From an uncultured Dehalococcoidia bacterium (lineage in GTDB: Bacteria; Chloroflexota; Dehalococcoidia; Lucifugimonadales; UBA1127), in NCBI GenBank assembly GCA_951812285.1, contig OX638292.1, positions 1,464,551-1,528,550 on the forward strand: DNA of 64,000 bases. Reading direction: 5' to 3'. This document shows, one piece after another, positions 1-61,584 of this stretch. The position numbers and the translations under genes are program-made. The notes under the pieces were generated by a model. That model was not told the origin of the DNA. It did no database searches and worked only from the letters and a program-made list of their open reading frames with translations. Positions within the stretch are counted from its first letter, which is position 1, and the number at the start of each line of letters is the position of its first letter.

Positions 1-995
1 CGCAGGCGGACGCGGGCATCGACATTGTCAACGACGGCGAGCTCAGCAAGGCGGGGTTCTCCGACTACATCAAGGACCGTGTGAGCGGGCTGGAGGGGGT
101 GGACCCGTCGCCGCAAGCGCCGTCGGAGGTCGATTTCCCGGAGTTTGCCGAGTGGTGGCGGACGGCCGGGTTCATGGGGAGCGTCACGTTCCCGCGGCCT
201 GTGTGCGTCGGGCCGATGGCGTGGACGCACCCGGAGACCGTCGAGGCGGACGTGGCAAACTTCCGCGACGCGCTGGAGGGCGTCGACGTGGCGGGGGCGT
301 TCATGACGGCGTCGTCGCCGGGCATCCTCGACCTTCGGATTGCAAACCAGCACTACTCGACGGAAGAAGAGTACGTGTACGCGCTGGCGGAGATGATGAA
401 GGTTGAGTACCGGGCCATCGCGGACGCGGGATTCGTGCTGCAGGTAGACGCGCCGGAGATGGCGATGGGGCGAAATTGGGCGCGGTTCCGGGACGGCTCA
501 TTGGAGGACTTCCGCCGTGCAATGGGGCTGTGGGCCGAATCGCTTAACCATGCGCTGGAGGGCATCCCGGAGGAACAGGTGCGCTACCACATCTGCTGGG
601 GGAACTCGGAGGGGCCGCACGTGTGGGACGTTCCGCTGCGTGACATTGTGGACATCGTGCTGCAGGTGCGCGCGGGCGCGTACTCCGTCGAGGCGTCGAA
701 CCCGCGGCACGCGCACGAGTGGCGTGTGTGGGAGGACGTGAAGCTGCCGGAGGGGAAGACGCTCATCCCGGGTGTGATTGACTCCACGACGAACTTCGTG
801 GAGCACCCGGAGCTGGTGCGGGACCGGATCCTCAGCTACGCAAACATCGTGGGACGCGAAAACGTCATCGCGAGCACGGACTGCGGCTTCGGCACCTTCG
901 CGGGGCGCTCGCGCGTACACCCCACGGTCGTCTGGGCCAAGCTGCGGGCGATGGCCGAGGGGGCGAGGCTGGCAACCGAGGCGCTTTGGGGGTAG
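1..995 (+). CDS. MetE-like (cobalamin-independent methionine synthase catalytic-domain family) methyltransferase, 5'-truncated by window edge
   Basis: Frame 3 is open from nt 3 (QADAGIDIVNDGELSK...) to the stop at 993-995. HICWGN and STDCGFG motifs match the Zn-binding MetE C-terminal domain. The listed ORF 81..995 only starts at an internal GTG. Confidence 0.8.
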   Translation, partial: QADAGIDIVNDGELSKAGFSDYIKDRVSGLEGVDPSPQAPSEVDFPEFAEWWRTAGFMGSVTFPRPVCVGPMAWTHPETVEADVANFRDALEGVDVAGAFMTASSPGILDLRIANQHYSTEEEYVYALAEMMKVEYRAIADAGFVLQVDAPEMAMGRNWARFRDGSLEDFRRAMGLWAESLNHALEGIPEEQVRYHICWGNSEGPHVWDVPLRDIVDIVLQVRAGAYSVEASNPRHAHEWRVWEDVKLPEGKTLIPGVIDSTTNFVEHPELVRDRILSYANIVGRENVIASTDCGFGTFAGRSRVHPTVVWAKLRAMAEGARLATEALWG

Positions 996-1038
996 GCTTA
1001 GGGGAGTCTCGAGGGGCGAGAGGAGACCGAGCACAGCG

Positions 1039-1482
1039 ATGCAGATGCGAAGGGGCGCCAACCCCGGCGCGCTCCAGAAGGCGGCGAACGCGCGCTTGCG
1101 GGAGTCGTTGCGGCTGCGGCCCAACGCTCAGTGGGCGGGCCACCACACGGACGACGAGGTCGAAATCAACGGCGCGAGCGGCGTCGCGGGCGGCTATGTC
1201 GGGCTCTACGGGGGGATCGTCGCAGCGCTCATCGGCGTTTTCACCGGCGACCGCGAACTCTACTTCTTCAGCCTGCTTGCCATCCTCATCGTGGGCTTCG
1301 GCTACGGGGTGCTTTCCGGAGGGGCGAGCACCAAGACGATGAAGGCCACCATCAGGACCTCTTGCATCTACGGGAGCCTCTTCAGTTTTGTGGCGATTGT
1401 GGTGGGGATCATCGTCAGCATCATGGTGATGGTACCCGTGCTGATGGTGTTCATCGCCCTCGATATTGGGCGCTACGGATAA
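1039..1482 (+). CDS. small hypothetical membrane protein (3-4 predicted TM helices)
   Basis: ATG at 1039 inside ORF 778..1482. Strong GC3 bias in this frame. Hydrophobic stretches GIVAALIGVF, FFSLLAILIVGFGYGVL, LFSFVAIVVGIIVSIMVMVPVLMVFIAL. Start choice is uncertain. Confidence 0.55.
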   Translation: MQMRRGANPGALQKAANARLRESLRLRPNAQWAGHHTDDEVEINGASGVAGGYVGLYGGIVAALIGVFTGDRELYFFSLLAILIVGFGYGVLSGGASTKTMKATIRTSCIYGSLFSFVAIVVGIIVSIMVMVPVLMVFIALDIGRYG

Positions 1483-1548
1483 TCGGCAGTCCGGCATAAT
1501 CGGAAATGCTGTATATTCCAGATTCGTTCGGTAAACCGGCGGTTTCGG

Positions 1549-1578
1549 TGGTCACTCGGGCGGAAAGCCTGATACAAT
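1549..1578 (+). promoter_or_regulatory. candidate sigma70-type promoter of the Rieske oxygenase operon (extended -10)
   Basis: TGGTCA (1549-1554), 18 nt spacer, TG-n-TACAAT (tgatacaat, 1570-1578), 43 nt before the ATG at 1622. The same 10-mer CTGATACAAT occurs upstream of purA. Confidence 0.4.
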
Positions 1579-1621
1579 CCCACCAAGACAACGGCTCCGG
1601 CAGTCTCAAAAGGAGGCGTCA

Positions 1622-2950
1622 ATGCTCACGCAAGTAGAGACGGATCTGCTCTGTCGAGTAGGTCCCGGCACACCCATGGGTGAGCTCATGCGGCAGTACT
1701 GGCTCCCCGCAGCATACCCGTGGGAGCTTGAGCCCGACGGACAGCCGCAGCGCGTCCGCCTGCTGGGCGAGGACCTTGTCGCGTGGCGCGACTCCGAGGG
1801 CAACATCGCATTCACGCAGCAGCGCTGTCCCCATCGCGGGGCGGGCCTCTTCTTCGGGCGGAACGAGAAGGGCGGCCTCAGGTGCGCCTACCACGGATGG
1901 AAGTTCGACGTGAACGGCGACTGCATCGACATGCCCAACGAGCCGGCCACGAGCAACTTCAAGAACAAGATGCACATCACGTCCTACAAGGGCGCGGACT
2001 TCGGCGGCGTGGTCTGGTGCTACATGGGGCCCAACCAGGAGGAGCCGCCCGGACTGCCGCAGTTCGAGTGGTGCCTGGTGCCCGAGGAGCAGCGCAGCCA
2101 CTACCGGCGCTTCATCTACGAGTGCAACTGGATGCAGGCGCTGGAGGGCGAGCTCGACTCGACGCACGCGCCCATCCTCCACGGCCGCCTGAACATCGAG
2201 GACAGCCCGAAGTACGGCGGCTACACGGTCGAGAAGGCGGCGGACTTCTTCGTGGAGAAGACGTCGTACGGCCTGGTGTACGGCGCGGAGCGGAAGCAGC
2301 CGGACGGGAACTCATACTGGCGCGCAAGCCACTTCCTCTTCCCCTTCTACGGCATGTTCCCGGCGACAGCGTCAAGGGTGCCTCTGTCCATCTACGTGCC
2401 CATCGACGACTACTACACCATGCACTTCGGGTTGCAGTGGCACCCGACGGAGGCGATGGAAGGCCCCCGCTACCCGACACCGGACCTGCCTGACGAGCCG
2501 GGCGTGCTGACGCCCAACCAAGGGCCGTGGAAGCCGGAAAAGAAGGGCACCTTCTACGCCAACTGGTGGCCGGAGATCAGCCCGGAGACGGACTTCCACA
2601 TGGATCTGTGGGCCAAGAAGCACAGGAACTTCACCGGCATTCCCAGCGTCCGGCAGCAGGACGCGGCGATCGAGTGGAGCATGGGCGCCATCATGGACCG
2701 CACGAAGGAGCACCTGGGCACGGCGGACGCGAGCATCATCCGGGCACGGCGGCAACTCATCGGCGCGGCGCGGGCGTTGGTCGAGGACGGCACGCCGCCG
2801 CCAGGATCCAACGAGCCCGAGGCCTACAAGGTCCGCTCCTGTGCGGTGGTATTGCCCGGTGGCGTAAACTGGATGGAAGCGCTGGGCGACTGGTTCTTCG
2901 CCCGCACGACGGAATACCCCGAATCGGCCGGGTCACTGACCGGCCAGTAG
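1622..2950 (+). CDS. Rieske [2Fe-2S] aromatic-ring hydroxylating/demethylating oxygenase alpha subunit (phthalate-dioxygenase-like family)
   Basis: 442-aa ORF with AGGAGG RBS. Rieske motif CPHRGAGLFFGRNEKGGLRCAYHGWKF (C-x-H ... C-x-x-H). No beta subunit or reductase lies adjacent. Confidence 0.85.
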   Translation: MLTQVETDLLCRVGPGTPMGELMRQYWLPAAYPWELEPDGQPQRVRLLGEDLVAWRDSEGNIAFTQQRCPHRGAGLFFGRNEKGGLRCAYHGWKFDVNGDCIDMPNEPATSNFKNKMHITSYKGADFGGVVWCYMGPNQEEPPGLPQFEWCLVPEEQRSHYRRFIYECNWMQALEGELDSTHAPILHGRLNIEDSPKYGGYTVEKAADFFVEKTSYGLVYGAERKQPDGNSYWRASHFLFPFYGMFPATASRVPLSIYVPIDDYYTMHFGLQWHPTEAMEGPRYPTPDLPDEPGVLTPNQGPWKPEKKGTFYANWWPEISPETDFHMDLWAKKHRNFTGIPSVRQQDAAIEWSMGAIMDRTKEHLGTADASIIRARRQLIGAARALVEDGTPPPGSNEPEAYKVRSCAVVLPGGVNWMEALGDWFFARTTEYPESAGSLTGQ

Positions 2951-2979
2951 CCTGAACGCTTAGGGAGAGGAGTCGAAGG

Positions 2980-4266
2980 ATGCTGACGCCAGAAGAGAAC
3001 GAACTGCTGTGTAGGGTCGGACCGGACACCCCCATGGGCAACATGATGCGGGAGTACTGGTTCCCGGGACTGCAGTCGATCGAGCTGCCGGAGCCTGACT
3101 GCGCGCCTGTTCGCATCAAGCTGCTGGGTGAGGAGCTCGTTGCGTTCCGTGACAGCAACAACAACGTTGGCCTGATCGACAACTACTGCCCGCACCGACG
3201 AGCGAGCCTGTTCTTCGGCCGGAACGAGGAGGAGGGGCTTCGCTGCGTGTACCACGGGTGGAAGTTCGACGTTAACGGTAACTGCGTCGACATGCCGTCG
3301 GAGCCGGCGGAGAGCAACTTCAAGGACAAGGTCAGGATCAAGTCGTACCGCACCCATGAGCGGAACGGCATCATCTGGGCGTACATGGGCTCGCGCGAGA
3401 TCCCGCCGGCGCTGCCGGAGCTCGAGGGGAACATGCACGACAACTACTCCATCACGGTCCTCCACAGGAACTGCAACTGGATGCAGGGGCTCGAGGGCGA
3501 GATGGACACCGTCCACGTGACGTTCCTGCACCTGGGGCACTTCACCATCTACAACACCGAGCCGGGCTCGATGAACTACCACCAGGCGAAGAACCGCTAC
3601 GGCAAGTTCAGCGTCAAGGAGACGGAGCACGGCACGTCGTACGGCATGTGGCGCCCCACGGACGATGGGCAGGAGTATTGGCGGGTCGGGCACATCCTCT
3701 TCCCGTTTTACGCGATGGTCCCGGGCATCGACAACCAGCTCGGCTCAAACGCCGGGTTCCTGTGCTACGTGCCGATGGACGACCACCACACGCTCGAGTG
3801 GGGCGTGCGGGCGCTGAAGCCGGGCGAGGAGCCTCGGGACCAGTCTCGCGACTACATCCCGAACGGCACAGGGTGGTACGACCGGTACAACCTGGACCAG
3901 AACTGGGGCAACGACTTTGAGATTGATCGTGAGGCGCAGAGGAACAACGTCAGCTTCACAGGCATCAAGGGCATTCGCCAGCAGGACATGGCGATGACCG
4001 AGAGCATGGGGAGCATCTACGACCGGACCAAGGAGCACCTGGGTACGACGGACCAGATGATCATCCGGACTCGCCGACGCTTCATGGACGCCGCTCGTGC
4101 ACTGATGGAGGACGGCACGCCGCCGCCGGGGCTGGAGACGCCGTGGGCGTACCACCAGCGGTCGGGGCAGGCGGTGCTTCCGGCGGGCGTCGACTGGTGG
4201 GAGTACACCAAGGACGTCCGGGAGCGGTTCGAGCCGAGCGGGCTGGTCATGGAGATGGGCGGCTAG
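2980..4266 (+). CDS. Rieske [2Fe-2S] oxygenase alpha subunit, paralogue of 1622..2950
   Basis: 428-aa ORF. CPHRRASLFFGRNEEEGLRCVYHGWKF. Colinear similarity to the upstream gene from the first residues (MLT..E.LLCRVGP.TPMG). Confidence 0.85.
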   Translation: MLTPEENELLCRVGPDTPMGNMMREYWFPGLQSIELPEPDCAPVRIKLLGEELVAFRDSNNNVGLIDNYCPHRRASLFFGRNEEEGLRCVYHGWKFDVNGNCVDMPSEPAESNFKDKVRIKSYRTHERNGIIWAYMGSREIPPALPELEGNMHDNYSITVLHRNCNWMQGLEGEMDTVHVTFLHLGHFTIYNTEPGSMNYHQAKNRYGKFSVKETEHGTSYGMWRPTDDGQEYWRVGHILFPFYAMVPGIDNQLGSNAGFLCYVPMDDHHTLEWGVRALKPGEEPRDQSRDYIPNGTGWYDRYNLDQNWGNDFEIDREAQRNNVSFTGIKGIRQQDMAMTESMGSIYDRTKEHLGTTDQMIIRTRRRFMDAARALMEDGTPPPGLETPWAYHQRSGQAVLPAGVDWWEYTKDVRERFEPSGLVMEMGG

Positions 4267-4293
4267 CGGCAAGGCTCATTCAGGCGACATAAC

Positions 4294-4329
4294 GAGAGGG
4301 GCCATGAACGTGGCCCCTCTCTCTTGTAA
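4294..4329 (+). terminator. rho-independent terminator after the Rieske pair
   Basis: Perfect 11-bp stem GAGAGGGGCCA / TGGCCCCTCTC (4294-4304 / 4311-4321), 6-nt loop, followed by TCTTGT. Confidence 0.7.
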
Positions 4330-9688: not shown

Positions 9689-10909
9689 ATGGACAAGCTG
9701 CTTTGTATCTCTGCAGACTCGCACATCGTCGAGCCGCCGGAGCTGTTCGAACCGCTGATCAAGAAGTATGGAGAACGTGCTCCGCACATGGCCGTTTCCA
9801 ATCCGGAGATGGGACCGCAGATGCACCTGGGCAACGGCAAGATCGGATTGCCGGCCGCCGGTTTCCTGCAGCAGAACGTCGACTTCACCAGCCCGCAGGC
9901 GCGGGCGGACATGAAGCGCGGCTACGACCTGGCGCTGCCGGGCTGCTACGACGTCGCGGAGCGGATGAAGGAGCAGGAGCAGGACGGCATCGACGCGGAA
10001 GTGCTGTACCCGAGCCTTCTGTTCAACGTCTACCAGGTCGAGGACCTGAATATCGTCAAGGACACCTTCACGGTATTCAACGACTGGATCACGGACTATG
10101 TCAGCCCCGCACCCGAACGCCTGTTTGCGCTCGGCGCAGTGCAGCTCTGGGACCTGGACCAGGCAATCGAGGAGATGGAGCGGTGCAAGTCCATGGGCCA
10201 CGTCGGCGTGTGCGTGCCCATCACGGCGCCGCCCGACCACCTGTACGTGGACACCTGGTACGACAAGTTCTGGGCGGCCGCGCAGGACATGGAAATGCCG
10301 CTGAACATGCACCTGTTCACGGGCGCGACGGACAACCACGGCCTTCCGCCCCGGCAAGCGCCGAGCCGTGCAAACGGCCCCATGGGCTTCGCCGGCGCAG
10401 CCTTCACCATTGCCGACATGATCCAGTCCGGCGTCCTGGAGCGTTTCCCGAACCTCAAGGTCGTCATCACCGAGTTTGAGACCGGTTGGATCGGGCACGT
10501 GCTGAAGAGGCTTGACTGGGCGTACATCCGCGGCGGCGGCGAGCGGACGTCGGGGCTGCCGATGCTGCCGAGCCACTACTGGCTGCGCAACTTCTACGCC
10601 ACCTTCGAGGACGACCCTCTCGGCATTCGGACGCGCGACTTCATCGGCACGAAGACGCTGATGTGGGGCAACGACTACCCGCACGGCGACTCCGTGTTCC
10701 CGCACTCGCAACAGGTGCTGAGCGAGATTCTCGACGAGTGCACGGCGGAAGAGCGGTACGAGATGACCGTGAAGAACGTGGTCGAGCTGTACAATCTGCC
10801 GTTCAAGCTTGAGGGCCCGGAGCAGGCCAAGGCCAACTACCTGGACTTCGGCAAGGAGAAGACCTGGCGGGCGTCGCTGCCCGGCTACGCGACGGCGCTG
10901 ACCGGCTAG
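9689..10909 (+). CDS. amidohydrolase-2 family protein, paralogue of 8396..9628
   Basis: 406-aa ORF. CISADSHIVEPPELFEPL, DAEVLYPS, MHLFTG, WGNDYPHGDS. Colinear with the upstream gene. Confidence 0.8.
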   Translation: MDKLLCISADSHIVEPPELFEPLIKKYGERAPHMAVSNPEMGPQMHLGNGKIGLPAAGFLQQNVDFTSPQARADMKRGYDLALPGCYDVAERMKEQEQDGIDAEVLYPSLLFNVYQVEDLNIVKDTFTVFNDWITDYVSPAPERLFALGAVQLWDLDQAIEEMERCKSMGHVGVCVPITAPPDHLYVDTWYDKFWAAAQDMEMPLNMHLFTGATDNHGLPPRQAPSRANGPMGFAGAAFTIADMIQSGVLERFPNLKVVITEFETGWIGHVLKRLDWAYIRGGGERTSGLPMLPSHYWLRNFYATFEDDPLGIRTRDFIGTKTLMWGNDYPHGDSVFPHSQQVLSEILDECTAEERYEMTVKNVVELYNLPFKLEGPEQAKANYLDFGKEKTWRASLPGYATALTG

Positions 10910-13798: not shown

Positions 13799-14148
13799 TG
13801 GTGGAGACGGGGGAGAGTCGAACTCCCCGTCCAAGAAGCGCTCAAGGGGATGTACTCCAGGCGTAGCCGCTGTATTGGGTTTCGCCATCGCAGCCCCCGG
13901 CGGCAGGGTCTGGTCAGGCTAGCCGAGACTGGACTTAAGCCTTCGCGGATCGGCGTGAGCTAGGGCCGCACCCTGTTTTTGTTGCGCCCGGCTCTTCCCT
14001 ACAGGGAAGGGAAGGACGGACGGGCCGCTCTAGGCGGCCAGTGCGAGTTCGCGCTCGCCAGTTACTTTTGTTCCGCCTGTTTAACGAGGAGGGCGGACCT
14101 CGGCCTGCAATCCCGCTCTGCTACCCCCTGTCGAAACCACGCGTCCCC
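13799..14148 (-). ncRNA. ssrA: tmRNA (SsrA), one-piece
   Basis: Minus strand starts GGGGACGCGUGGUUUCGACAGGGG and ends GGACGGGGAGUUCGACUCUCCCCCGUCUCCACCA. Acceptor stem has the G3:U wobble. Internal tag frame ...GGC GAG CGC GAA CUC GCA CUG GCC GCC UAG gives ...GERELALAA* (14030-14059). It lies immediately next to smpB. Confidence 0.93.
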
Positions 14149-17568: not shown

Positions 17569-17595
17569 CGCCGGGCAACAACGCAAGGACACTCG

Positions 17596-17636
17596 GAGGG
17601 GCTACTGCTGCCGGCGGTGGCCCCTTCGCTTTTGGG
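17596..17636 (+). terminator. terminator-like hairpin after citrate synthase
   Basis: GAGGGGC ... GCCCCTT stem followed by CGCTTTTGG. Confidence 0.4.
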
Positions 17637-17668
17637 GACGACCGGAGGGCGCTGCTTCGCCGCGGGGA

Positions 17669-18140
17669 GCAAAGCGGGGGTCTTCGGCCTGATGGCGGGC
17701 AAACGCACAAGCTGGGCCGCGAAACGGGCTGTTTCGGGGCCTCCTGCGGACACCGGCTCTCCAAGTCCCCGAAAACGGCCGCTTTTGGTCTTGAGCCGGG
17801 CGGCCCACCATCCGGCCCTCGAAAGGGCTTTTGGGCGGGCCAAGGGACAACCGTCGTGCAGGGCTCGAAAACGGGCGTTTTGCAGGCTCAGGCGGACTCC
17901 GCGCCACCCTGCATCGCGAAAGCGCCGCAATGCGGCTCCTGCGTTGCAGCATCGAAACAGCGTCTCTCCAGGTCGTTTCAATTACTTCGCATCACTGCAG
18001 TAACCTAAAGTAGTATTCTACATAAGATAAATATTATGTCATTCTTGAGGGGTTAAACGTACATAATGAATATAGTGCGAAGTGCTTCTCAGCGATTCTC
18101 CAGAGCTTCCGGACCGCGCGAAAACGCGCGTCTTGACTCC
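17669..18140. repeat. array of short inverted-repeat units (core CGAAA(A)C-N4-8-G(T)TTTSG) in a 628-bp convergent intergenic region
   Basis: Core starts at 17720, 17770, 17820, 17866, 17917, 17953 and 18119 (spacing 50, 50, 46, 51, 36 within the main run). Weaker copies at about 17669 and 17699. An AT-rich core at 18001-18075 interrupts the array. Confidence 0.7.
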
Positions 18141-18196
18141 AAGGCGGGCCTCGGGGTCGGGTTGAACCTCTTCGGGCCCAGTTTACGCGCTGAGCG

Positions 18197-18640
18197 TCAC
18201 GCTCCCGCGCCCGCCATGCCGGCCAGGATCTCGTCGGTGCTCGGCATGCCGCGCTGGTAGTAGACGACCACACCTCGCTTGTCGATGCCTACCACGGTCC
18301 GCAGCGGTGCGATCTTCTGCAGCGTTCGCGCACCGTAGGCCTGACCCACCTCGCCGCCGTCGTCCACGAGGAGGCTGAAGGGGAAGTTGTTCTTCTCGCT
18401 GAACCGCTGGTGGGACTTCATGCTGCCGGGGTTGACGCCAAACACCACGGTTTCGGCGTCCTCAAACCTGTCCCTGTCATCACGCAGGGCACACAATTGC
18501 CGCGTTCAGCCGGGCGTGTTGTTCATGGGGTAGAAGACCAGCACGACGTTCTTCTTGCCCCGAAAGCTGGACAGCGTCACGTCTTCATCGGGCGGGGTGC
18601 CCTTCAGGGTGAAGGCAGGGGCAACCGATCCCACGTCCAT
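18197..18640 (-). CDS. bcp: Bcp-type peroxiredoxin (AhpC/TSA family) with in-frame TGA = candidate selenocysteine at the peroxidatic position (U45, resolving C50)
   Basis: ORFs 18506..18772 and 18197..18496 are in the same frame, separated only by TGA (18506-18508) plus 3 codons. The joined sequence reads VLVFYPMNNTPG-U-TRQLCALRDD, colinear with the FYP...TPGC....C..RD motif of Bcp. ATG 18640 has a GGAGG RBS. Confidence 0.75.
18469..18493 (-). promoter_or_regulatory. candidate bacterial SECIS stem-loop for the peroxiredoxin TGA
   Basis: RNA UGU(G)CCCUG-CGUGAUGA-CAGGGACA. The stem starts 13 nt after the UGA (position +16 counting the U as +1) and the apical loop spans +25 to +32. Confidence 0.5.
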
Positions 18641-18683
18641 AACGATGCGTCCTCCCCGCGTTGCGCCTCTCGCGCAAGCGCTG

Positions 18684-19970
18684 TCAGTCGATAAAGTGCA
18701 CCTGAGACCCCGAGAGCGCGCCGACGGGCCGCGAGTCGATTCGCTGCACGATGGCGTCCAACAACAGGTCAAGGCCCCAGCCCTCGGCGGCGGACACCAT
18801 GACGCCGCCCTCCGCGCTCTCGCCGAGGGACGACAGGTCGGGCCCGGACCCGTTCTCGGCGTGCACGGCCAGGTCCATCTTGTTCAGCACCAGCAGCCGC
18901 GGCTTGGCGTCTAGATCCAGCTCGGCCAGTGTTTCCTCAACGACTTGCACGTGCTCGGCGGCGTTGTGGTGGCTGACGTCGACGACGTGGAGCAGCAGGT
19001 CGGCCTCGGCGAGCTCCTCGAGGGTCGCCCGGAAGGCGGCTACGAGCGTGTGGGGCAGCTTGTGGATGAAGCCGACCGTGTCCGTCAGGAGGGCGAAAGT
19101 CCCGTCGGGGAGCGCCATGCGCCGCGTAACCGGGTCCAGCGTCGAAAAGGGCTTGGCCTCAGCGACGACGCCCGCACGCACCAGCGCGTTGAAGAGGGTG
19201 CTCTTGCCCGCGTTGGTGTAGCCCACCAGCGAGACCATCGGCGCCTGGGCCGCCTGCCTCCGACTGCGGTGCCGCGAACGGTGTGCCCGGACGGTCTCGA
19301 GGTCGCGCTTCAGCCGGCTGATGCGCTCGCGGACGAGGCGGCGGTCGGTCTCGAGCTGGGTCTCGCCGGGGCCCCGGGTGCCGATGCCGCCTCCGAGACG
19401 CTCGAGGTGCGACCACTGCCCGGCGAGCCTCGGCAGCAGGTACTCGTGCTGCGCGAGCTCGACCTGGAGCACGCCCTCTTTGGTGCGGGCCCGGTCGGCG
19501 AAGATGTCCAGGATGAGCGCGCTGCGGTCAAGGACCTTCACTTCGAGTGCACGCTCAAGGTTCCGCTGCTGCGCCGGCTTGAGCTCATCATTGAAGACGA
19601 CGACAGTGCTCTCGGATGCCGCGCGCGTCTCCTTTATCTCCTCGAGCTTGCCGTGGCCGACGTAGACCGACGTCGGCCGGTCGATGTTCTGCGTCACCTC
19701 GCCGACGACCTCGCCACCCGCGCTGCGCACAAGCTGCCCGAGCTCGCCCATGGAGTCGGCGAGCTCCCATCGGGCGTGGCGAGCGTTTCGTGGCGCGATG
19801 CCCACGAGCAGCGCGCGCTCGGGCCCGGTGGCCGTCGCGTGCAAGCCGTTGCCGTTGGACCTGTCTCGGCGTCTGGCCAGGGTGGGCGCTCCTTCTCCGG
19901 CGGGCGGGAAACCCCGCTGTTGGTGTCTAGTTTGAGTCGTTATGTCTTGTGCGGGCACGATATCGCCCAA
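18684..19970 (-). CDS. hflX: GTPase HflX
   Basis: 428-aa ORF. HflX N-terminal domain followed by the G domain GYTNAGKSTLFNAL, DTVGF, NKMD. Exact start uncertain (TTG at 19970). Confidence 0.88.
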   Translation of the reverse strand: MGDIVPAQDITTQTRHQQRGFPPAGEGAPTLARRRDRSNGNGLHATATGPERALLVGIAPRNARHARWELADSMGELGQLVRSAGGEVVGEVTQNIDRPTSVYVGHGKLEEIKETRAASESTVVVFNDELKPAQQRNLERALEVKVLDRSALILDIFADRARTKEGVLQVELAQHEYLLPRLAGQWSHLERLGGGIGTRGPGETQLETDRRLVRERISRLKRDLETVRAHRSRHRSRRQAAQAPMVSLVGYTNAGKSTLFNALVRAGVVAEAKPFSTLDPVTRRMALPDGTFALLTDTVGFIHKLPHTLVAAFRATLEELAEADLLLHVVDVSHHNAAEHVQVVEETLAELDLDAKPRLLVLNKMDLAVHAENGSGPDLSSLGESAEGGVMVSAAEGWGLDLLLDAIVQRIDSRPVGALSGSQVHFID

Positions 19971-60033: not shown

Positions 60034-61584
60034 TCAGGGCCCCGTGTACAGCTCCGTGTCCGGGTGGAACTGGTACCAGCCAAACCAGAAGGACATGTGC
60101 GTGGGTATGCGCGCAAGCTTCTCAGTCCCGTCAGCTTCATTGACGAGGTATTCCTCGGTCACCCGCCACACATCGCCGTCGCCGTCCACAACCTGGACGG
60201 GGAGGAGGAGGCTGTTGGCCTCGCCCGGCGCGAGCTTGAATGTCCTGCCGCCCCGGTAAAAGGACCTGGCGCCCTCACTTCCGGCTGAGGCGAGCACCAG
60301 GATCTCCTCGCCGCCCACCACGTCGTTGATGATGCGCGCCACTCGAAGTGCGTCGGAGGCGTAGGCCTTGTAGCTGTCGCTGAGTTGGACGCCCAGGACG
60401 ATGTCCTTCGTTTCGAGGCCGTCGTGCCGGTCGGGGACCGGGAACATCGTCTCAGGGTCGGTGAAGTAGCCGAAGTAGATGGCCTCCGGGTCGTCTTCGG
60501 GAGCGTAGAAATCAGCGTTGTATACGCCCGTCGACTGGGCGAGCACCGTAGTGTCGGGATGGAGTGCGAGCCACTCCTCCCACGTTGTGAGCATGACGGG
60601 GAAGAATTCGAGCTTGATGCCGGAGTCCCACAGCGGACCGATGACAGGCTCGCTGGTGAGTTGGTTCCAGAGGGAGTTGGTCAGGCGGTCGTACATGACC
60701 TTGTTGCTGCGGTAGAGCATGCCCGACGTGCCAAATGTCGTTGGCTCTCCGTTGATTTTGGCGGAATACACGATTCCGGTGCCGCAGAGGGTTCAGTAGG
60801 CAAGGGAGATGGGCTCACCTCCCAATATGTCGTTGGCCATCTCATGGGCGTTCACGATCCGGAGCGGGTAGGCCCTGTGCTTGCCGTTGATAGACACGCC
60901 GAAGACCCGGTCGGTCGGCAGCAGGTAGTCCTGGTCGTCCGCAGCGACGACGGGGGCCTGTTCCAAGGGCGGGATGCCGTCGGGCCGGACGCCTCCCCAC
61001 GCGATTTCCGCGACGTTAATCCTGGACCCCTGCTCCGCCGGGGACAGGAAGTCGCCGAATCTGTAGTCGATCAGATTCATGAGATCGACCTTCCACGCCA
61101 CGTAGCCATCAGGGGGTGGGTAGTCGTGGCCATTCCGGCCAAGCCATTCCATCCACTCGAACCAGCCACGGGCGTAAGCCTCAAAGTACTCGCCGGTGAG
61201 CTCAGAGAGAGCCTCCTTGGTGTCCTCAACGAGCGTCCAATTCCCGAAGAAGCGGAGCATCTCGATCATCACGGGGACCATAGACTTGTCGTTATTGGCG
61301 ACAGCCAGCTTGATGGCCTCCTGGGATTGCGCGGGCTGAGTCCCATAGCCCGCGAATAGCCTGTACATGTTCTCGTTGGAGTCGTAAGGCCCAGAGGGAG
61401 CCGATGCGGCAGTCGGCTCGGCCGCCGCAGTTGCAGGCGCGGCGGCCACTTCCGCTTCCGCGGGCACCGCCGTCGGCGTGACCTCGAGTTCAGGGAACGG
61501 CTCATCCACCCCAGAGCATGCCACCGTGACAGCCACAAGGGACGTTACCGCCAGCAAAACGAATCGACGCAAGAGCCTGTTCAC
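60034..61584 (-). CDS. DUF3179 family lipoprotein with in-frame TGA = candidate selenocysteine in a U-x-x-C motif (U264, C267)
   Basis: ORFs 60793..61584 and 60034..60771 are in the same frame, joined by TGA (60793-60795) plus 7 codons. The junction reads GGEPISLAY-U-TLCGTGIVYSAKING, where DUF3179 proteins (from memory) carry Y-C-P-L-C. GTG start after GGAAGGA. Lipobox VTVAC. Confidence 0.72.
60760..60783 (-). promoter_or_regulatory. candidate bacterial SECIS stem-loop for the DUF3179 TGA
   Basis: RNA GG-cac-C-GGAAU-CGUGU-AUUCC-G-CC. The core stem spans +19 to +33 from the U of UGA and the apical loop +24 to +28. Confidence 0.45.

Follow-up and report, generated by a model that had tools for sequence, protein, structure and literature searches.

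In a window of 64,000 nucleotides (the whole stretch of DNA analysed here) from an uncultured Dehalococcoidia bacterium, a gene of the peroxiredoxin family carries an in-frame TGA at the codon where the peroxidatic cysteine is expected. Is this gene broken, or is the TGA read as an amino acid? Sequence comparison makes it very likely that the gene, referred to here as prx, is intact, that it specifies a selenocysteine (Sec)-containing peroxiredoxin of the Bcp/PrxQ type, and that its internal UGA is read as Sec.

Reading frame and family of the interrupted gene

Two ORFs had been listed for this region, 18506..18772 and 18197..18496, and the preliminary description took them to be a single gene. 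They do share one frame, in which the TGA (18508-18506) is followed by ACG CGG CAA and then by the TTG at 18496, and the minus strand holds one gene of 147 codons, running from the ATG at 18640 to the stop at 18197, with the TGA internal and in frame. The upstream bound of 18772 did not hold. The TTG at that position is not the start; the start is the ATG at 18640-18638, which is preceded by a ribosome-binding site (RBS), a purine-rich GGAGG-like block that is mostly kept in the aligned relatives. The upstream ORF starts with ~44 codons that run over the tail of hflX (18684..19970) and lie outside prx; hence, the feature to be considered is 18197-18640. The coordinates are collected in Table 1. 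Reading through the TGA gives a protein of 147 residues, MDVGS...VLVFYPMNNTPG-U-TRQLCALRDDRDRFED.... Gene callers cut prx into ORFs of 43 and 83 amino acids in every assembly, and the close matches in the protein collection searched were split fragments only, with no full-length product among them.

Table 1. Features of prx and of the second TGA-containing gene in the window.
Feature	Position	Strand	Basis or remark
Complete CDS, predicted Sec-containing Bcp/PrxQ-type peroxiredoxin	18197..18640	-	Translation; TGA stop 18199-18197
In-frame UGA, codon 45, predicted Sec at peroxidatic position (P38-x3-T42-x2-U45)	18506..18508	-	Conservation and Bcp1 alignment
TGT codon, Cys50, predicted resolving cysteine (U45-x4-C50)	18491..18493	-	Alignment with Bcp1 residue 50
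RBS GGGGAGG, 10-nt spacer to ATG 18640-18638	18651..18657	-	Sequence
Candidate bacterial SECIS hairpin core, CCCUG-CGUGAYGA-CAGGG	18472..18489	-	RNAfold and conservation
Hairpin stem CCCUG/CAGGG; 8-nt loop CGUGAUGA	Stem 18489-18485/18476-18472; loop 18484-18477	-	Fold
Extended lower stem, -9.7 kcal/mol in window sequence	18467..18496	-	Not conserved in every relative
DUF3179 gene with in-frame TGA 60795-60793, ...SLAY-U-TLCGTG..., UxxC	60034..61584	-	Pfam and conservation
DUF3179 hairpin CGGAAU-CGUGU-AUUCCG	60778-60762	-	20 nt past UGA

The read-through protein matched the Pfam family AhpC-TSA (PF00578) over residues 3-127 of 147 (E=3.4e-32). Its best match in the PDB was Sulfolobus solfataricus Bcp1 (3DRN, E=7e-24), and Bcp4 (3HJP) was also matched. 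Bcp1 has been placed in the Bcp/PrxQ subfamily (PMC7465337), and its catalytic residues are Cys45 and Cys50 (PMC7265447). In the 3DRN alignment the TGA column falls on position 45 of Bcp1 and Cys50 on position 50, while the Bcp1 residues Arg53 and Arg112 correspond to R53 and R114 of the window protein. The likeness to the Bcp/PrxQ active site that had been pointed out earlier, with the TGA exactly at the peroxidatic Cys, was thus borne out (P38-MNN-T42-PG-U45, then C50), and the CP-x4-CR spacing is kept as U45-TRQL-C50 together with the conserved active-site Arg. The two best NCBIfam models were those for Bcp (NF006960, the top one) and PrxQ (NF053650). For NF006960, the E. coli Bcp equivalog model, the score of 79.9 bits was below the cut-off of 140, and for NF040737 (peroxi_PrxU) the score of 42.2 bits was below the cut-off of 270. 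Judged by these profile matches, the window protein belongs to the Bcp-type family without being an equivalog of E. coli Bcp.

Conservation of the TGA and of the hairpin behind it

When 12 Dehalococcoidia sequences of 68-96% protein identity, taken from independent short- and long-read assemblies, were compared, the TGA was found to be invariant in all 12. Neighbouring wobble positions vary across the same sequences while the TGA stays fixed, so that its conservation is far beyond chance. Cys50 is likewise invariant, its codon alternating between TGT and TGC, and the hflX-prx-citrate synthase synteny is common to all those of the 12 for which flanks are present. Among the carriers of this gene are the complete chromosomes OZ220679.1, OZ244559.1 and OZ252245.1 and the contig CBDHDD010000001.1. 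More distant full-length homologues (25-58% identity) have Cys at the TGA column, the nearest of these Cys forms being 50-58% identical to the window protein; the one exception is a Gemmatimonadales sequence (L014, 35% identity), which also has TGA. The column thus holds TGA or Cys, as the preliminary description would have it. A sequencing or assembly artefact at codon 45, for which nothing specific speaks, is barely conceivable, the same TGA being present in independent ENA, Logan, JGI-type and NCBI assemblies produced with different technologies.

Both parts of the gene are under purifying selection. The dN/dS ratios were mostly 0.07-0.48 on the N-terminal side of the TGA and 0.11-0.49 on the C-terminal side, at dS values of 0.3-1; being well below 1 on both sides, they indicate that both halves are translated and constrained. 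No scattered stops were seen, in agreement with the earlier remark that the gene shows no decay. In L003, one of the relatives, a 1-nt deletion lies just past the hairpin described below, and the other 11 sequences are without further stops or frameshifts. The near-identical L009 is intact, so that the deletion probably stems from a homopolymer error of long-read assembly.

These results bear on the possibility that a nonsense mutation turned TGC or TGT into TGA in a Cys-type Bcp and that the gene is now decaying. One third-position transition or transversion would suffice for such a change, the split calls recur in all assemblies, and L003 is additionally frameshifted. It is nevertheless very improbable that prx is a pseudogene: the TGA has been retained across 12 sequences whose divergence reaches dS 0.4-1 and which are not near-clonal copies (their projects, assemblers and divergence levels differ), selection acts on both sides of it, and a conserved hairpin accompanies it that is missing in the Cys forms. 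Global reassignment of TGA was also considered and is ruled out. TGA is the stop codon of 14 of the 44 confident window genes, including hflX and prx itself; hence, the code is not reassigned and the recoding is specific to its context.

The hairpin has a spacing of 21 nt from the UGA, and its core encodes A51-L52-R53-D54-D55-R56. [quoted passage not shown] The prx hairpin agrees with all four criteria of this model, having a loop of 8 nt with G at position 2 followed by U, a stem of 5-6 bp and the 21-nt spacing. Its MFE, calculated by RNAfold with flanking nucleotides, ranged from -7.7 kcal/mol in the window sequence, which barely clears the threshold of -7.5, to -12.7 kcal/mol in one relative (L013). 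The stem-loop at 18469-18493 that had been proposed as a SECIS sits inside the extended hairpin (18496-18467), around the core at 18489-18472. Pairs of the lower stem are lost where the Cys50 codon is TGC instead of TGT.

In the 12 sequences, 18 of the 19 nt of GCCCTGCGTGAYGACAGGG are invariant, and the lone variable base preserves a G-C or G-U pair. All four sites of at least fourfold degeneracy inside the hairpin are invariant, compared with 5/40 elsewhere (Fisher p=9e-4), and both of its Arg codons, CGT and AGG, are rare (8.4% each). Six homologues of the Cys form have no SECIS-type hairpin, three of these six being high-GC and sharing the CTRQLCAARDD peptide; the conserved hairpin is restricted to TGA forms. 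In the Gemmatimonadales TGA form, no hairpin with 5 bp or more agreed with the SECIS criteria. Two-sided compensatory covariation was not seen in the hairpin, as its stem is invariant (six pairs never vary). Folding of the 72-nt region after the TGA was no better than that of shuffled controls (z=-0.13); in a genome of 65% GC, stability alone is hence not evidence here.

It may also be asked whether two polypeptides are made, i.e., a 44-residue N-terminal peptide and a C-terminal fragment started at TTG 18496 or at the callers' GTG, which would assemble non-covalently. Potential start codons do lie downstream of the TGA, and both parts are under selection, but no RBS precedes the internal starts, and frozen synonymous sites that form a hairpin at SECIS spacing would be left unexplained. 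Such a complex would have no peroxidatic residue and would consequently be catalytically dead. We give this scheme next to no credence.

A second TGA-containing gene and probable Sec decoding

A gene unrelated to prx in the same window also has an in-frame TGA in a Cys position. Its match to the Pfam DUF3179 profile is split across the TGA (2-64 / 74-292), and gene callers split this gene too. Its TGA and hairpin are kept in L028 and L029 (66-67% identity); at this position L031 has Cys and L030 has Ser. The hairpins of the two genes have the same CGUG loop start and spacings of 20 nt (DUF3179) and 21 nt (prx), and these are the only two sites within the window where a TGA and a CGUG hairpin occur in real coding frames. 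Other matches to this combination (20611+, 22176+, 35458+, 31863-) were either on the strand opposite known genes or not in frame. DUF3179 (PF11376, UxxC/T) is a known predicted selenoprotein family (PMC13188914). With a second gene of the same architecture, from a published selenoprotein family and conserved in relatives, this genome very probably decodes Sec.

Neither the 64-kb window nor the ±10-kb flanks around related loci yielded any selA, selB, selD or tRNA-Sec. ARAGORN and Rfam detected only tmRNA and tRNA-Lys in the window, and ARAGORN detected no tRNA-Sec in nine related loci. When the 20 largest window ORFs still unassigned were scanned with NCBIfam, no SelA, SelB or SelD appeared, and the functions were housekeeping ones only; ValS, SecA, DnaN, CoaBC, PurA, RNase J, FtsK, AccAD, IlvA and others were among them.

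Could the UGA be recoded independently of Sec, with a near-cognate tRNA for Cys or Trp decoding it, or through generic read-through that the hairpin stimulates without SelB? The search results for the Sec machinery in the window and flanks would be compatible with this, as would the fact that the inserted amino acid is not identifiable from sequence alone. To our knowledge, no dedicated Sec-independent UGA read-through of such a kind has been established for bacterial peroxiredoxins. This explanation is very improbable: the UGA stands at a redox-active Cys column, the hairpin matches a SelB-type bSECIS model, the DUF3179 gene has the same arrangement, and Sec-rich genomes occur in the class, Dehalococcoidia MAGs being among the most selenoprotein-rich bacteria (BSepDB).

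Proposed mechanism, known relatives and significance

In the mechanism that we propose, UGA codon 45 of prx would be decoded as Sec instead of stop during translation. The hairpin inside the A51-R56 codons would act as a bacterial SECIS and, by the established bacterial Sec mechanism, would recruit SelB-GTP-Sec-tRNA(Sec) to the UGA-paused ribosome, so that selenium would be incorporated. In the resulting product of 147 residues (~16 kDa), Sec45 is predicted to be the peroxidatic residue, becoming oxidised to selenenic acid as peroxides are reduced. Cys50, five residues further on, would then attack to give an intramolecular selenenylsulfide with Sec45, which a thioredoxin-type reductant would reduce. 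By homology, the whole would be an atypical 2-Cys Bcp mechanism with Se replacing S. We know of no biochemical characterisation of such U45-x4-C50 selenenylsulfide chemistry in an atypical 2-Cys peroxiredoxin.

The closest relatives of the window protein are the Cys-type Bcp/PrxQ proteins (Bcp1, E. coli Bcp), with which it shares CP-x4-CR at 45/50 and the conserved Arg53 and Arg112/114; unlike these, it has the predicted Sec45 and a candidate SECIS hairpin in its mRNA. PrxU of Eubacterium acidaminophilum is an experimentally verified Sec-peroxiredoxin, thioredoxin-dependent and carrying Sec as its peroxidatic residue. The score of 42.2 bits against the NF040737 cut-off of 270 shows that the two proteins are not orthologues. 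PrxU has ~230 residues and belongs to a different Prx subfamily, whereas the window protein has 147 and is of the Bcp/PrxQ type, its predicted resolving Cys standing five residues behind Sec. COG1225 is the COG of Bcp. The Sargasso Sea survey assigns Sec-peroxiredoxins to COG1225 (PMC1088965), and the tie between the published family and the Bcp/PrxQ type rests on that assignment together with the identity of COG1225.

Sec-peroxiredoxins (TxxU, COG1225) have long been established, since 2004-2005, as a widespread family with several independent Cys-to-Sec conversions (PMC1794560, PMC1088965, PMC13188914), and a Sec-containing Prx is, as had been supposed, plausible rather than exotic. The window gene resembles them in its AhpC-TSA domain, in T42-P-G-U45 and in the predicted SECIS hairpin just downstream in the coding region, and no difference in kind was apparent, the likeness being drawn from the description of the family (reference sequence WP_011365628.1). 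A literature search for an explicit description of a 'Sec-containing BCP/PrxQ' gave nothing specific. The Prx-like thiol:disulfide oxidoreductases (UxxC/UxxU) are of the same Pfam clan and are also selenoproteins; their active site has the thioredoxin-like form UxxC instead of TxxU (PMC1088965). With TPGU followed by x4-C, the window protein falls outside that family.

Most likely, then, the window gene is an ordinary further member of a long-known bacterial selenoprotein family, in an uncultured Dehalococcoidia, and existing knowledge of Sec decoding and of peroxiredoxins is unaltered by it. A bolder reading, which falls somewhat short of an even chance, is that Bcp/PrxQ was converted from Cys to Sec independently within this high-GC Dehalococcoidia lineage, a SECIS being placed in the codons of a conserved alpha-helix, A51-R56, through almost only synonymous changes, and that a SECIS type with a CGUG loop and 20-21-nt spacing is common to unrelated selenoprotein genes. 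If true, two such genes in 64 kb would hint at a large and mostly unannotated selenoproteome.

For annotation, the result concerns the split calls of the prx and DUF3179 genes in this Dehalococcoidia lineage. As every caller splits both genes, the lineage's antioxidant repertoire and its selenium dependence are under-reported. The prx gene would also be an example of a SECIS overlaid on a conserved helix through rare synonymous codons. Together, the two genes offer a lineage-specific SECIS template (UGA, 20-21 nt, a 5-6 bp stem and a CGUG... loop), which could help to recover the remaining selenoproteome of these Dehalococcoidia MAGs.

Layout and active site of the split peroxiredoxin

The preliminary description had reported two ORFs (18506..18772 and 18197..18496) lying in one frame and parted by TGA ACG CGG CAA, and had read them as one peroxiredoxin split by a TGA at its peroxidatic cysteine. 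Both the single-frame layout and the placing of the TGA were confirmed. The nominal TTG start of the upstream ORF was not the start of prx, as the Bcp/PrxQ-type gene is called here; it falls within the 3'-terminal part of hflX, and the real prx gene is therefore the shorter one listed below. The read-through product is MDVGSVAPAFTLKGTPPDEDVTLSSFRGKKNVVLVFYPMNNTPG-U-TRQLCALRDDRDRFED....

Features of the two TGA-interrupted genes and of hflX (window positions)
Feature	Position	Strand	Description
hflX	18684..19970		3' end contains TTG 18772
Ribosome-binding site GGGGAGG	18657-18651	minus	10 nt upstream of prx ATG 18640
prx coding sequence	18197-18640	minus	ATG at 18640, TGA stop 18199-18197, 147 codons
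In-frame TGA, prx codon 45	18508-18506	minus	sole interruption between ATG 18640 and stop
prx hairpin CCCUG-CGUGAUGA-CAGGG	18489-18472	minus	21 nt past UGA
DUF3179 gene	60034-61584	minus	Pfam domain split 2-64 / 74-292 by TGA
In-frame TGA of DUF3179 gene	60795-60793	minus	...SLAY-U-TLCGTG..., UxxC
DUF3179 hairpin CGGAAU-CGUGU-AUUCCG	60778-60762	minus	20 nt past UGA

When the read-through protein was searched with Cys substituted at the TGA, Pfam AhpC-TSA matched it over nearly its full length (E=3.4e-32). The two top NCBIfam models were those for Bcp and PrxQ, the score against Bcp (NF006960) being 79.9 bits, short of its equivalog cut-off (140); COG1225 is the Bcp COG. The closest solved structure was that of Sulfolobus solfataricus Bcp1 (3DRN, E=7e-24), which is assigned to the Bcp/PrxQ subfamily (PMC7465337). 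Bcp1 has its catalytic cysteines at 45 and 50, with Arg53 and Arg112 as nearby positive residues (PMC7265447). The TGA column and Cys50 of prx align with positions 45 and 50, and R53 and R114 are the counterparts of the two arginines. Hence, the TGA falls exactly at the peroxidatic residue, in the motif P38-x3-T42-x2-[C/U]45 with the resolving Cys five residues on.

Conservation of the TGA and selection on both halves

Among 5.8 billion proteins searched, the five nearest clusters (83-96% identity) were all C-terminal fragments of 83-84 aa, and the next matches were full-length Cys-type proteins of just 50-58% identity; among the close matches in this collection no full-length product appeared, split fragments only. 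The contigs behind the fragments all carried a 43/44-aa N-terminal ORF followed by an 83-aa ORF, and the relatives' contigs that have flanks shared the gene order hflX - prx - citrate synthase - CtpA - SmpB - tmRNA. A scan of species-representative genomes gave six further close relatives (68-83% identity), all from Dehalococcoidia or Chloroflexota MAGs, three of them closed chromosomes. Codon 45 was TGA in 12/12 related sequences, with neighbouring third positions free to vary; more distant homologues have Cys in this column. The 12 sequences originate in separate projects, some assembled from short reads and others from long reads, which rules out a sequencing or assembly artefact common to all of them.

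By the Nei-Gojobori method, applied to pairs among eight representative sequences, dS was 0.3-1, with a few higher values. The dN/dS ratio was 0.07-0.48 for the 44 codons ahead of the TGA (the noisy exception being the pair of relatives L012-L013, at 1.15) and 0.11-0.49 for the 102 codons past it. On these ratios, the parts before and after the TGA are each translated and under constraint, and prx cannot be a pseudogene. The absence of decay described earlier for the window gene thus holds in its relatives, dN/dS being mostly well under 1 on either side of the TGA.

One relative, L003 (ENA ERZ24894577 ctg434327l, ~9790-9800), lacks one nucleotide of a TTT run just past the hairpin (GACAGG-TTGAG), which shifts the frame. 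As the nearly identical prx of L009 (OZ220679.1) is intact, the deletion is likely a homopolymer error of long-read assembly. TGA occupies the peroxidatic column in a distant Gemmatimonadales homologue too, L014 (MAG CAVZZO010000001.1, 10001-10423; 35% identity). Its active site, ...FYPMNNTSG-U-NRQLSAVRDE..., carries Ser in place of the resolving Cys, and the gene is predicted to be a 1-Cys-type Sec form.

The surroundings of prx were also inspected. Between its stop and that of the convergent citrate synthase gene lies a gap of ~630 nt (17569-18196). It has no coding-like ORF, and parts of it are conserved in L001 and L009. An AT-rich block in the gap contains a sigma-70-like site, ATGACA-16-TAGAAT (18042..18015, minus strand), past which a near-palindrome of ~20 nt, GCNCGAAAACGGGCGTTTTG, recurs in several degenerate copies (17767-17786, 17863-17882, 18116-18135). 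The gap may represent a small RNA not yet annotated, or else a REP-like element; Rfam gave no significant match for it (best Chlorobi-1, 17 bits, E=0.12). The tmRNA gene (13799-14148, minus strand) adjoins smpB and encodes the tag peptide GERELALAA, identical in all Dehalococcoidia relatives examined (syntenic loci L001, L002, L008, L009, L011-L013) and thereby a convenient lineage marker. A few kb beyond dnaN, L001 (ENA ERZ25084374 contig_18, 1-4300; 88% identity) has CRISPR-associated genes (Cas1, Cas4 and Cas3-like), whereas that side of dnaN is occupied in the window by genes for NAD(P)H-hydrate repair and CoaBC; the neighbourhood therefore diverges there.

The hairpin downstream of the UGA

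The bacterial model (bSECIS) of the SECIS, the hairpin directing Sec insertion at UGA, is given in a 2026 review as a loop of 3-9 nt, a stem of 4-16 bp, a spacing of 16-37 nt, an MFE <= -7.5 kcal/mol and a G in the first two loop positions, usually then G or U (PMC13188914). The stem-loop proposed in the preliminary description (18469-18493) contains a hairpin that fits this model, with an 8-nt loop starting C-G-U, a stem of 5 bp that lengthens to 6-7 bp in L012 and L013, a 21-nt spacing and an MFE of -7.7 kcal/mol in the window and up to -12.7 kcal/mol in relatives.

Against shuffled sequences, the folding stability was unremarkable for a genome of 65% GC (z=-0.13). No two-sided covariation was found in the stem among the 12 sequences, because the stem never varies. 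Within the 19-nt core, GCCCTGCGTGAYGACAGGG, one base (the Y) varies among these sequences, and it retains a G-C or G-U pair. Among amino-acid-invariant columns, codons of at least 4-fold degeneracy were invariant in 4/4 cases inside the hairpin versus 5/40 elsewhere (Fisher p=9e-4); for all degenerate columns the counts were 5/6 and 14/60 (p=0.006). Both Arg codons in the hairpin, CGT and AGG, are rare (each accounts for 8.4% of the 1,253 Arg codons counted over 44 confident genes of the window). A hairpin fitting the bSECIS criteria was present in none of six Cys-form homologues, three of which are high-GC relatives that have the near-identical peptide CTRQLCAARDD but employ the codons GCC GCC CGC GAC GAC. 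It is the frozen core and synonymous sites, the rare Arg codons and the absence from Cys forms that support the hairpin; stability alone does not. In L014, the sequence past the TGA yielded no hairpin with 5 bp or more that fits the model, just a weak structure of 3+3 bp whose loop is CGUGC.

A full-length selected frame runs through a conserved UGA, followed at SECIS distance by a conserved hairpin specific to the Sec form. The conserved TGA, the selection on both halves and this hairpin support the Sec interpretation put forward earlier, and prx is very probably a genuine selenoprotein gene. In the established bacterial pathway, SelB-GTP-Sec-tRNA(Sec) would bind the apical part of the hairpin and, competing with RF2, deliver Sec at the UGA. 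If the enzyme works as its Bcp/PrxQ homologues do, Sec45 would attack the peroxide to give a selenenic acid, which Cys50 would resolve into an intramolecular selenenylsulfide, to be reduced by a thioredoxin-type system.

A second candidate, probable Sec decoding and the place of prx

A scan of the 64-kb window for TGA-bridged coding regions gave exactly one real case besides prx, the DUF3179 gene. Its hairpin and that of prx have an identical CGUG loop start and near-identical spacing (20 vs 21 nt). In two metagenomic relatives (L028 and L029, 66-67% identity) the TGA and hairpin are kept despite surrounding synonymous changes; the TGA column holds Ser in a 50% homologue (L030) and Cys in a 35% homologue (L031). 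As its N-terminus resembles a signal or lipoprotein sequence (...LVAVTVAC-SG...), the product may be an exported selenoprotein. DUF3179 (PF11376, UxxC/T) is itself among the families already catalogued as predicted selenoproteins. Elsewhere in the window, a protein with a double rhodanese domain (Pfam PF00581; 57330-58235, minus strand) has an uninterrupted frame and is presumably a Cys form; Sec forms (UxxG) of rhodanese-related sulfurtransferases are also known (PMC13188914).

TGA terminates 14 of the 44 confident window genes, hflX and prx itself included, and its recoding is therefore context-specific, not global. No tRNA-Sec was found in the 64-kb window (tmRNA and tRNA-Lys only) or at related loci. 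Likewise, no selA, selB or selD was found among the 20 largest otherwise unassigned window ORFs, which are housekeeping genes. The presence within 64 kb of two unrelated genes, both with a conserved TGA where a redox Cys would stand and with SECIS-type hairpins that resemble each other, is strong indirect evidence for a Sec trait. Dehalococcoidia MAGs are among the ten most selenoprotein-rich bacteria in the bacterial selenoprotein database BSepDB, with 46-49 genes each (PMC13326102), and close relatives of prx may already be entered there.

TxxU Sec-peroxiredoxins are a classic bacterial selenoprotein family, for which a 2006 count gave twelve genes, with Cys-to-Sec conversion inferred five times (PMC1794560); the 2026 review enters it as PF00578 / TxxU (PMC13188914). 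The predicted prx product agrees with this family in every sequence-level criterion, and thus appears to belong to an already known kind of Sec-peroxiredoxin. PrxU is not its orthologue (42 bits against the NCBIfam cut-off of 270), and the 'Prx-like' family, which is UxxC, does not include it. As a selenoprotein gene, prx would be no surprise to a specialist; its practical value lies in a corrected annotation and a lineage-specific SECIS template.
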